Source of the DNA: Escherichia coli | Lineage (GTDB): Bacteria; Pseudomonadota; Gammaproteobacteria; Enterobacterales; Enterobacteriaceae | Direction: 5' to 3' (one strand) | NCBI RefSeq assembly: GCF_003334785.1 | Contig: NZ_QOWV01000011.1 | Length of the DNA stretch: 64,000 bases | Shown here: one piece after another, positions 27,173 to 37,593 of the stretch | How positions within the stretch are numbered: the stretch's first letter is position 1 | Layout of the letters: each line of letters starts with the position of its first letter | Notes under the pieces: generated by a model | Databases searched by the model: none | What the model was told of the DNA's origin: nothing | What the model saw: only the letters and a program-made list of their open reading frames with translations | Program-made: the position numbers and the translations under genes

Positions 27173-27487
27173 TCTTTCCGCGTCTCATCTTTATCGGTGA
27201 GACGCACCCTCAAAATTTCTCCTTCACTCTATAGTCTTTTCGCTTTACTCCCGTTCATTCAACTTAAGTCTCCATTTTTTTGCATTACTACTATCTGTCA
27301 GACCTCCATTCTTCTGTTGATAAAACACTCTTTTTGACGTTTTTACAGACTAATTGAACGTGAAGTGTGCAAACGATAAAAGTGTAGGAAAAATTGTTTG
27401 ACTTATAAGTCTCAGAAAGTAATATGTGCGCCACGCAGCGACGATGAGCGATAAACAAGTTCTTCGAAGCACTCGTAAGAGGCGTGT

Positions 27488-27580
27488 GGTGAGGTGGCCG
27501 AGAGGCTGAAGGCGCTCCCCTGCTAAGGGAGTATGCGGTCAAAAGCTGCATCCGGGGTTCGAATCCCCGCCTCACCGCCA
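27488..27580 (+). tRNA. serV: tRNA-Ser (anticodon GCU), long variable arm
   Basis: 93 nt ggtgaggtggccgagaggctgaagg...gaatccccgcctcaccgcca; anticodon loop ctGCTaa. Confidence 0.95.
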
Positions 27581-27583
27581 TTT

Positions 27584-27660
27584 GCATCCGTAGCTCAGCT
27601 GGATAGAGTACTCGGCTACGAACCGAGCGGTCGGAGGTTCGAATCCTCCCGGATGCACCA
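27584..27660 (+). tRNA. argV: tRNA-Arg (anticodon ACG), copy 1
   Basis: 77 nt gcatccgtagctcagctggatagag...ctACGaa...cctcccggatgcacca, 3 nt after serV. Confidence 0.95.
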
Positions 27661-27776
27661 TATTCTCCGAAATCTTCAGCAATGAAGGTATCGAAGAGGT
27701 AGCGGAATTAACCGCAGGCACTAGGGATGATAACGTTGCTTTAGCAACGGCCCGAAGGGCGAGCCGCAAGGCGAGT

Positions 27777-27795
27777 AATCCTCCCGGATGCACCA
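27777..27795 (+). repeat. tRNA-Arg 3'-end fragment in array spacer
   Basis: aatcctcccggatgcacca identical to last 19 nt of tRNA-Arg, no 5' half. Confidence 0.8.
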
Positions 27796-27858
27796 TCTCT
27801 TAATTGATATGGCTTTAGTAGCGGTATCAATATCAGCAGTAGAATAAGTTTTCCCGAT

Positions 27859-27935
27859 GCATCCGTAGCTCAGCTGGATAGAGTACTCGGCTACGAACCG
27901 AGCGGTCGGAGGTTCGAATCCTCCCGGATGCACCA
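27859..27935 (+). tRNA. tRNA-Arg (anticodon ACG), copy 2
   Basis: Identical 77-nt sequence 275 nt downstream of copy 1. Confidence 0.95.
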
Positions 27936-28050
27936 TATTCTCCGTAACCTTCAGCAATGAAGGTATCGAAGAGATAGCGGTATTAACCGCAGGCACCAGG
28001 AAGGATAACGTTGCGCCAGCAACGGCCCGAAGGGCGAACGTCAGTGAGTC

Positions 28051-28068
28051 ATCCTCCCGGATGCACCA
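28051..28068 (+). repeat. tRNA-Arg 3'-end fragment downstream of copy 2
   Basis: atcctcccggatgcacca within a spacer that repeats the copy-1 spacer with substitutions. Confidence 0.8.
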
Positions 28069-28215
28069 TCTTCTCCAAAAAATTTCCTTCAAAAATATCT
28101 CATTTCTAAATAAGTCCTTTATCCATTTCCTGAATTTTCTTCTCCTTCGCCATCAGCGACAAAATCAAGCAATTACGCTAAAGTAGCGTCATATTTTTCG
28201 ACTTGCGAGAAGACC

Positions 28216-28782
28216 ATGTACGAGCGTTATGCAGGTTTAATTTTTGATATGGATGGCACAATCCTGGATACGGAGCCTACGCACCGTAAAGCGTGGCGCG
28301 AAGTATTAGGGCACTACGGTCTTCAGTACGATATTCAGGCGATGATTGCGCTTAATGGATCGCCCACCTGGCGTATTGCTCAGGCAATTATTGAGCTGAA
28401 TCAGGCCGATCTCGACCCGCATGCGTTAGCGCGTGAAAAAACAGAAGCAGTAAGAAGTATGCTGCTGGATAGCGTCGAACCGCTTCCTCTTGTTGATGTG
28501 GTGAAAAGTTGGCATGGTCGTCGCCCAATGGCTGTAGGAACGGGGAGTGAAAGCGCCATCGCTGAGGCATTGCTGGCGCACCTGGGATTACGCCATTATT
28601 TTGACGCCGTCGTCGCTGCCGATCACGTCAAACACCATAAACCCGCGCCAGACACATTTTTGTTGTGCGCGCAGCGTATGGGCGTGCAACCGACGCAGTG
28701 TGTGGTCTTTGAAGATGCCGATTTCGGTATTCAGGCGGCCCGTGCAGCAGGCATGGACGCCGTGGATGTTCGCTTGCTGTGA
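28216..28782 (+). CDS. yqaB: HAD-family sugar phosphatase YqaB
   Basis: 188 aa, HAD motif I FDMDGTILDT. Confidence 0.9.
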   Translation: MYERYAGLIFDMDGTILDTEPTHRKAWREVLGHYGLQYDIQAMIALNGSPTWRIAQAIIELNQADLDPHALAREKTEAVRSMLLDSVEPLPLVDVVKSWHGRRPMAVGTGSESAIAEALLAHLGLRHYFDAVVAADHVKHHKPAPDTFLLCAQRMGVQPTQCVVFEDADFGIQAARAAGMDAVDVRLL

Positions 28783-30845: not shown

Positions 30846-30917
30846 AAAAGGCCACTCGTGAGTGGCCAAAATTTCATCTCTGAATTCAGGGATGATGATA
30901 ACAAATGCGCGTCTTTC
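30846..30917 (-). ncRNA. micA: MicA (SraD) small regulatory RNA
   Basis: Minus strand reads GAAAGACGCGCATTTGTTATCATCATCCCTGAATTCAGAGATGAAATTTTGGCCACTCACGAGTGGCCTTTTT, with terminal hairpin and U-tract, in the gshA-luxS spacer. Confidence 0.9.
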
Positions 30918-37511: not shown

Positions 37512-37593
37512 GTAGGCATGATAAGACGCGCCAGCGTCGCATCAGGCATTGTGCACAGAACGGCGGATGCGGCAAAAACGCCTTATCCGCCCG
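37512..37593. repeat. REP cluster, two units
   Basis: gtaggcatgataagacgcgccagcgtcgcatcaggca and cggcggatgcggcaaaaacgccttatccgcccg. Confidence 0.85.

Follow-up and report, generated by a model that had tools for sequence, protein, structure and literature searches.

We find that the csrA-proximal serV-arg tRNA locus in a 64,000-nt stretch of Escherichia coli DNA (the whole stretch is hereafter called the window) is a copy-number variant of the serV-argVYZQ operon, holding two tRNA-Arg(ACG) genes where K-12 has four. The short copies of the tRNA 3' end that are interspersed with these genes belong to two tRNA-linked repeats (TLR, RtT-like), whose 3' ends they form, and they were made neither by the 414-bp deletion described below nor by any other recent rearrangement. 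Neither the copy-number variant nor the repeat family is a new kind of thing. We consider it fairly probable that the locus as a whole is a contracted form of the operon in a phylogroup-A-like E. coli, produced by biological deletion and retaining the TLRs that survived it.

The array runs from csrA toward yqaB, as in the serV-argVYZQ operon, with the csrA C-terminus upstream and the yqaB ATG at 28216 downstream, and it has the same neighbors in K-12, MC1061 and JKHS016. All of its features lie on the plus strand. The tRNA-Ser(GCU) gene serV (27488..27580; ARAGORN; Rfam tRNA, 56.8 bits), equal to K-12 serV, ends at 27580, and the first tRNA-Arg(ACG) gene follows 3 nt later, starting at 27584 (27584..27660; ARAGORN, Rfam), both sequences being those of K-12. 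This first gene occupies the argV position and runs into the sequence that follows argZ in K-12, while the second (27859..27935; ARAGORN, Rfam) is the argQ equivalent. The Arg genes agree at all 77 nt and start 275 nt apart, and the unit recurs as a 180-nt direct repeat of 94% identity. ARAGORN, Rfam and sequence comparison thus agree with a sequence-only reading of this DNA, which had described two identical 77-nt tRNA-Arg(ACG) genes 275 nt apart after serV. Upstream of serV, a promoter-like site (TTGACT, 16 nt, TAATAT; 27398..27425) is a consensus match only (2 found versus 1.4 expected in shuffles); its position is compatible with the start of the operon. The terminator-like hairpin (28175-28189) with a T-run (28175..28199) that separates the array from yqaB is likewise no more than a pattern match.

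The window contains four copies of the 18-nt tRNA end ATCCTCCCGGATGCACCA, two within the tRNAs and two outside them, at 27778-27795 and 28051-28068, with 0 occurrences expected from 100 shuffles. The first of the extra copies reaches 19 nt (27777-27795). Each lies 117–118 nt 3' of its respective tRNA, which gives start-to-start spacings of 135 and 133 nt, and in the first unit 63 nt separate the fragment from the next tRNA. The sequence-only reading had placed the copies at the ends of spacers of ~200 nt; the copies are indeed there, but ~117 nt after the tRNA and not at the end of the spacer, and the second fragment, put at 28070 together with the end of the array, ends at 28068. No tRNA 5' half precedes either extra copy, just as that reading had it. 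Neither serV nor the other tRNA of the 64-kb window (59889-59964) is followed by a 3'-end copy of this kind. Minus-strand Rfam matches to plastid ycf2 and psbI-rps4 were tRNA look-alikes and were discarded.

To describe these arrays we divided them into modules: A, the 77-nt tRNA gene; TLRa, TLRb and TLRc, fragment-ended elements of 133–135 nt; and s_a, s_b and s_c, plain spacers of 62–64 nt. K-12 MG1655 carries serV, argV, argY, argZ and argQ (b2695-b2691) with Arg start-to-start distances of 275/139/275 and reads A-TLRa-s_a-A-s_b-A-TLRb-s_c-A-TLRc-trailer. The window reads A-TLRb-s_c-A-TLRc-trailer, with its two genes 275 nt apart and each module 100% identical to its K-12 counterpart save for one SNP in the trailer (28114). 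Thus TLR1 (27661..27795; 135 nt), which begins at the first base past the CCA end of the first tRNA, is 100% identical to the K-12 argZ-argQ repeat TLRb and 92% identical to TLRa; the plain spacer behind it (27796..27858; 63 nt) is 100% identical to s_c and 94% identical to s_b, the TLR-free argY-argZ spacer; and TLR2 (27936..28068; 133 nt), which likewise begins at the first base past a CCA end, is 100% identical to the K-12 post-argQ repeat TLRc. The window and the K-12 operon therefore share the site, serV and tRNA-Arg(ACG), the internal spacer being that of argZ-argQ and the trailer that of argQ, and differ in that the window has two Arg genes and not four, with a 414-bp segment in the argV/TLRa/argY register gone and the SNP at 28114. 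The sequence-only reading had stated that argV, argY, argZ and argQ stand here in K-12, making this array two genes shorter, and had advised an alignment to the reference serV-argVYZQ region; MG1655 bears this out, and the alignment gives four genes against two with 414 bp missing.

The same difference was seen against the nearest relatives. The 24 kb downstream of the array are 100% identical to several ST10-like isolates, and three of these, JKHS016, NCTC9087 and AST198, all have four-copy arrays. The window aligns colinearly to JKHS016 along its whole 64 kb, the only differences being 6 SNPs and one gap of 414 bp. In the four-copy relatives, argV and argZ share an 84-bp stretch of identity that exceeds the tRNA by 1 nt on the left and by 6 nt on the right, and its two copies lie 414 bp apart. 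Since this distance is the size of the gap, the window is what a crossover or slipped misalignment inside the 84 bp would produce, and the corresponding interval in the window (27583..27666; 1 + 77 + 6 nt) must hold the crossover. Both RecA-dependent exchange and RecA-independent replication slippage can delete the sequence between repeats so short and so close. From an ancestral array of the form A-TLRa-s-A-s-A-TLRb-s-A-TLRc, homologous exchange or replication slippage in the 84-bp stretch identical at argV and argZ would have removed exactly 414 bp (argV, TLRa, spacer, argY and spacer, or an equivalent register) and left A-TLRb-s-A-TLRc. Unequal recombination or slipped duplication, proposed in the sequence-only reading, is the right class of mechanism for the shortening; as the source of the fragments, which that reading took for its footprints, it does not hold.

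To place this allele within the species, we searched 5,426 complete E. coli genomes with the 77-nt tRNA and obtained 21,504 matches (1 to 9 per genome; median of 4). In an evenly spaced sample of 60 of these genomes, 53 carried four copies and 7 (about 12%) carried 2, 3, 5 or 6. The array was short enough in 74 genomes for one match to cover ≥80% of the csrA-yqaB stretch of the window. Window-type alleles were tallied with a junction query from the listed single-piece matches, as the repeats blur summary bands; by this tally, across the 5,426 genomes, A-TLRb-s_c-A-TLRc occurs otherwise only in the MC1061 lineage. The left junction is also common to the window, the MC1061 derivative TOP10, and Stbl4. 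The MC1061-lineage allele (NZ_CP195014.1) shares the architecture of the window with 99.8% identity over 1,301 bp, but it carries C11T in its second tRNA and agrees with K-12 at 28114, and the flanks of the window match natural ST10-like isolates and not MC1061. For these reasons the two deletions were probably independent events.

Decomposition of a dozen arrays revealed at least 10 different mosaic architectures in finished genomes. S17-1 and G1/2 carry A-TLRa|s_c-A-TLRc, with the crossover in the 3' part of the TLR; O104:H4, a PacBio-era genome, carries A-TLRa-s_b-A-TLRc; and AVS0973 carries A-s_b-A-TLRc. Two differing three-copy forms are found in Z1323CEC0007 and 510016, and 2015-01-466 and L725 have four copies with TLRb at both internal positions. 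In O103 RM8385 and 20KM2300 the terminal TLR is missing, exactly between the 18–19-nt repeats. Because that TLR is so precisely gone, the fragments at this locus are recombination substrates and not scars. A literature search for natural argVYZQ copy-number variants found no paper on them.

Sequence alone does not discriminate a real deletion from an assembly collapse, and the warning in the sequence-only reading that the repeat might have collapsed was justified. If it did, the strain truly has four tRNA-Arg genes, and the path of the assembler through the repeated 84-bp tRNA node skipped two loops. We regard this as a serious though less probable account of the two-copy state. It draws on the fact that the closest natural relatives, 100% identical in the flanks, are all four-copy, and a collapsed assembly would appear identical to a deletion; the architecture is otherwise confined to the MC1061 lineage among the listed single-piece matches, and the collection of complete genomes contains no exact match to the array (best, 99.8%), so that the window may come from a draft assembly. 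Repeats of the tRNA/TLR kind do trouble short-read assemblies, and among the matches listed many TLRs sit at contig ends or on tiny contigs. Yet those same matches, in which TLR-bearing draft contigs measure 246–1,229 nt or the TLR lies at the contig end, display breakage, which is the usual failure, and not a silent skip, whereas the window passes straight through the locus. An identity of 84 bp would also be shorter than the k-mers or reads of most current assemblies. Moreover, copy-number polymorphism is common and real in finished genomes: several kinds of contraction occur there, including that of PacBio-era O104:H4, and about 12% of the 60-genome sample is not four-copy. On balance we infer that the strain has probably undergone a rare but real deletion of two Arg genes.

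Such a deletion does not account for the fragments, since the uncontracted array has them too: four-copy K-12 carries three TLRs. As related by Stenum et al., 2021 (PMC8144298), the TLR family was first seen by Egan and Landy in 1978, and Rudd in 1999 counted 22 copies at ten K-12 loci. By the rule that defines the family (Stenum et al., 2021, PMC8144298), the last 18–19 nt of a member exactly repeat the 3' end of the gene upstream, and both elements in the window end in this way, over 19 nt (27777-27795) and 18 nt (28051-28068), with 0 such ends expected by chance. Their core consists of GGATAACGTTGC, a loop, GCAACGGCCCGAAGGGCGAG, a small hairpin and GAGT(A/C)ATCC, followed by the locus-specific last 12–13 nt of the tRNA; Arg, Lys and Tyr elements share a core of the form GGATAACGTTGC-loop-GCAACGGCCCGAAGGGCGA...GAGT(A/C)ATCC. 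Sequence specific to TLRa reads TATTCTACGTACTTTCAGCGATG. The core is absent elsewhere in the 64-kb window.

At gathering thresholds, Rfam returned no annotation in the spacers when the whole window was searched. A permissive search with the RtT RNA model (RF00391; gathering score, 45 bits) matched both TLRs of the window below that score, at 27668-27795 (31.0 bits; E=0.002) and 27943-28068 (22.8 bits; E=0.21). When applied to K-12, the same model gave >130 bits on the four repeats of the tyrT locus, 46–60 bits on five elements of the lysT operon and 47 bits after lysV, with 31, 29.2 and 22.8 bits on the Arg elements. Because the Arg scores all fall below 45 bits, routine Rfam annotation misses Arg-type TLRs. 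No RtT match was obtained in the K-12 spacers of metT-glnX, alaWX and valUXY.

A scan for the core in species-representative genomes returned at least 120 loci, about half of which are chance matches in GC-rich genomes, and is to be read as a sample and not a survey. Among the matches listed, tRNA-linked copies were found in Citrobacter, Enterobacter, Klebsiella, Pantoea, Erwinia, Pluralibacter, Cedecea, Brenneria, Budvicia, Pseudescherichia and others, behind tRNAs for Lys(UUU), Tyr(GUA), Arg(ACG), Pro(CGG) and Pro(UGG). In at least 49 unique elements among these matches, the element and the tRNA upstream of it end in the same 16–19 nt (12 nt in one). The TLR ends track species-specific variants of the tRNA (loci L046, L072 and L073), and at one locus of Citrobacter youngae (L115) they follow two tRNA-Lys variants within the same locus. 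Tandem runs of TLRs with no intervening tRNA are found at tyrT and at three further loci (L033, L048 and L067). These runs are the duplication counterpart of the precise TLR losses in E. coli, and the 18–19-nt repeats therefore act as recombination substrates.

These observations bear on how the fragments originated. The sequence-only reading saw in them footprints of rearrangement; full tRNA copies would once have stood at these sites of the array and been cut short there by unequal recombination or slipped duplication, leaving local scars. The array has demonstrably been shaped by unequal exchange, TLRs repeated in tandem (TLR-TLR-TLR) at tyrT as well as in Klebsiella, Pantoea and Superficieibacter show that duplication via the 19-nt repeats occurs, and the ultimate origin of TLRs is not established. 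However, fragment-bearing elements are present in all forms of the array examined, four-copy K-12 with its three included; their body of ~117 nt is neither tRNA nor array spacer, and its conserved core stands behind Lys, Tyr and Pro tRNAs in many genera. The body also contains a strand complementary to the fragment that shows compensatory change, whereas a scar would decay and not co-vary. The fragments are thus the 3' termini of TLRs; their origin as scars of a recent event is largely refuted, and we judge it improbable. Still more improbable, in our view, is that fragment and tRNA 3' end form an attL/attR-type duplication left by an integrating element, or the long target-site duplication of a small mobile element specific for tRNA 3' ends. 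The geometry would fit, with a tRNA end, an insert of 117 nt, a repeat of the end over 18–19 nt and a spacer homologous to the TLR-free spacer. The presence or absence of the terminal TLR is bounded exactly by the repeats, and the repeat begins in the T-loop, where many integrase att cores begin. Against this, only 117 nt lie between the repeats, and neither an integrase or transposase nor any credible ORF is present in the element or close to it (an ORF scan of 27581-28216 returned only mechanical ORFs overlapping tRNA genes, with no tpr-like peptide and no recombinase). Terminal inverted repeats are missing, and no inverted repeats were found in 27300-28300. Each type of TLR has an internal strand complementary to its own tRNA, which would not be expected of an element landing on different tRNAs, and the fragments follow paralogue-specific tRNA variants within a single operon (L115).

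Returning to the fragments as TLR termini, we examined how these elements fold. The two TLRs of the window have predicted folding energies of -50.0 kcal/mol (TLR1; z -4.0) and -49.9 kcal/mol (TLR2; z -4.1) relative to shuffled controls. In all folds the fragment is predicted to pair with an internal strand that closely precedes the AACGTTGC hairpin, leaving ACCA single-stranded. For TLR1, the predicted partner of the 3' fragment is GCACTAGGGATGAT (27718..27731; one G-U pair and one mismatch), with 27778-27791 paired and ACCA at 27792-27795 free; for TLR2 it is GCACCAGGAAGGAT (27993..28006; one mismatch). Both partners come from the minimum free energy and alignment folds. RNAalifold, run on 9 Arg-type TLRs from 7 species, gave two leader hairpins, a 13-bp closing helix and three inner hairpins, with 36 pairs of which 10 show compensatory changes; the strands of the closing helix correspond to columns 60-73 with 124-137. 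One such change in the closing helix is seen in Pseudescherichia vulneris, in which tRNA, fragment and internal strand are altered together. Covariation in this small sample of related sequences thus lends moderate support to the predicted structure. Covariation in RtT RNA has been noted previously (PMC7657543) and the Rfam RtT model already has an outer helix, and we do not claim the structural reading as new.

Across tRNA types and among the matches listed, the body of a TLR forms a stronger duplex with the end of its own tRNA than with foreign ends (mean of -15.7 versus -10.8 kcal/mol), the own end being the best partner for 8 of 9 Arg, 14 of 14 Tyr, 11 of 24 Lys and 0 of 2 Pro elements; Lys-type TLRs have a weak closing helix, and that of the two Pro-type TLRs shows no specificity. 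As a duplex, the closing helix is imperfect in both copies of the window (-11.2 and -13.6 kcal/mol) and perfect in TLRa of K-12 (-19.8 kcal/mol). The internal strand reads as the 5' strand of the acceptor fused directly to the 5' strand of the T-stem, and because of this make-up the Arg-type TLR resembles an acceptor/T-stem minihelix in which the T-loop is replaced by an insertion.

These features suggest how the spacers might be processed. The TLRs would be co-transcribed spacer RNAs whose last 18–19 nt copy the T-stem, the 3' strand of the acceptor and the ACCA of the upstream tRNA; by pairing with the complementary strand of the body, this end would close the RNA with a long helix that leaves ACCA free as a tail, and three small hairpins would stand where a tRNA has its T-loop. 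By analogy to RrB, the tRNA-like end could let RNase E, cutting just downstream, and possibly RNase P, on the 5' side, excise the spacer as a discrete RNA. We tentatively raise the further idea, which we hold to be rather unlikely, that Arg-type TLRs are minihelix mimics co-evolving with their own tRNA, in which the 13-bp helix, free ACCA and three hairpins would be acted on by RNase P and the 3'-end machinery to give a stable RNA of ~78 nt, a possible decoy or regulator of tRNA-processing, CCA-adding or TadA-type enzymes. The contraction would have removed TLRa, the only Arg copy in E. coli with an intact helix.

All tRNA-Arg(ACG) genes of E. coli lie in this one array, and the loss of two would halve the dosage of the sole tRNA that reads CGU, CGC and CGA. 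When argYZQ is deleted and one copy is left, the level of tRNA-Arg2 falls 16-fold and cells grow more slowly in rich medium (PMC13170351). Since reduction to a single copy has these effects, the natural two-copy allele may, by analogy, carry a modest dosage cost. The two-copy MC1061 lineage grows well, so two copies are tolerated, and the consequences are probably modest. The locus exemplifies frequent mosaic rearrangement driven by tRNA repeats of 77–84 bp together with TLR ends of 18–19 nt, and it is a reminder that such arrays can be mis-assembled; otherwise the contraction has little significance beyond bookkeeping. The window is colinear with a finished genome and contains no IS element or rRNA operon informative on assembly.

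The elements in the window share with the type examples of the TLR/RtT family, the 178-bp tyrT-tyrV repeats and rttR, a position directly after the tRNA within its operon, the 18–19-nt end, the hairpins of the core and the participation of the fragment in a closing helix. Unlike the tyrT repeats, Arg-type elements are without the extra GATGAGAA..GGTTCGA module and the tpr ORF, and their closing helix extends almost to the discriminator base. The tyrT rtT RNA and RrB are reported to be transcribed and released as discrete RNAs (PMC8144298), and in the same account no function is known for TLRs save that three rRNA-linked members bind Hfq and CsrA in vitro. Those members, the sRNAs RrA, RrB and RrF, belong to the same family by the 3'-end rule and differ in that they follow 5S rRNA in rrnA, rrnB and rrnD and bind both proteins; their repeated end is proposed to direct RNase E cleavage just downstream, and the 19 TLRs of tRNA operons scored <0.01 for CsrA-sponge features with InvenireSRNA (PMC8144298). 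A further point of comparison is offered by functional tRNA-spacer RNAs such as 3'ETS-leuZ (cited in PMC8144298), in that an RNA cut from a polycistronic tRNA precursor could act in trans.

Over 64 kb, contraction of the tRNA array was the sole structural difference between the window and its finished four-copy relative JKHS016, and only six base differences were found (positions 410, 16379, 17737, 18474, 45932 and 60246). The same colinear record bears on a plus-strand tRNA gene at 59889-59964, which ARAGORN called as tRNA-Met(CAT) and which is annotated in JKHS016 as tRNA-Ile (ileY type, lysidine-modified), followed there by pseudogenes and a recombinase fragment. The 3' end of this tRNA has no second copy anywhere in the window. 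Two further RNA features, the MicA sRNA adjoining luxS (30846-30917, minus strand; 83.9 bits) and a naRNA4/REP-type element (37515-37592, minus strand; 72.2 bits), are expected for this region.

Arrays in other strains differed in their tRNA-linked repeats (TLRs). Both the pig isolate 2015-01-466 and strain L725 (loci L138 and L139) have four copies and carry TLRb, accompanied by one and the same type of spacer, at both internal TLR positions, which suggests either gene conversion or a duplication that followed an earlier contraction. At the site corresponding to window 27936-28068, the O103 strain RM8385 (L014) and 20KM2300 (L140) are without the terminal TLR. The limits of this gap are exact, running from the tRNA 3' end to the 18-nt repeat, so that the trailer abuts the tRNA; either recombination through the short repeats deleted the TLR precisely, or the site was empty ancestrally.

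Laboratory lineages also carried altered arrays. In MC1061 (L002, 2260-2336), the second tRNA-Arg(ACG) bears a C11T change in the D-stem, and thus one of the two copies left is a variant. Separately, we observed that the second tRNA-Arg of TOP10 (L141, NZ_CP080620.1, 1672-1800; approximately window 27859-27905) is a chimera, in which the first 46 nt of tRNA-Arg run directly into the 3' portion of a tRNA-Leu, with yjjZ/fhuF following. This fusion, together with the yjjZ/fhuF sequence beyond it, indicates that the breakpoint of a large rearrangement lies within the tRNA gene. The left junction of the TOP10 array was also present in Stbl4; Stbl4 and XL10-Gold each gave 6 tRNA-Arg matches.

Short-read assemblies are routinely broken by tRNA/TLR arrays. 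Among the matches listed in our scan of species-representative genomes for the TLR core, many in draft genomes either lay no more than ~250 nt from where a contig stops or fell on short contigs, 246-1,229 nt in length (loci L024, L026, L028, L034, L040, L049, L054, L102 and L131).

The scan also captured a locus in Citrobacter youngae (L115) that holds two tRNA-Lys variants (ending …GACCCACCA and …GCCCCACCA) and two TLRs ~205 nt apart, one behind each variant and each ending in the sequence of its own variant. The TLR end therefore tracks the neighbouring gene, even between paralogues. Outside Enterobacterales, TLR-like cores were found, among the matches listed, behind tRNA-Arg(CCG) and tRNA-Ser(UGA), in Marinobacterium lutimaris (L050), an Amphritea MAG (L127) and Photobacterium (L081). 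The stretch that these elements have in common with the tRNA end is only ~11 nt long, or shorter; they may be decayed or divergent TLR members that widen the range of the family.
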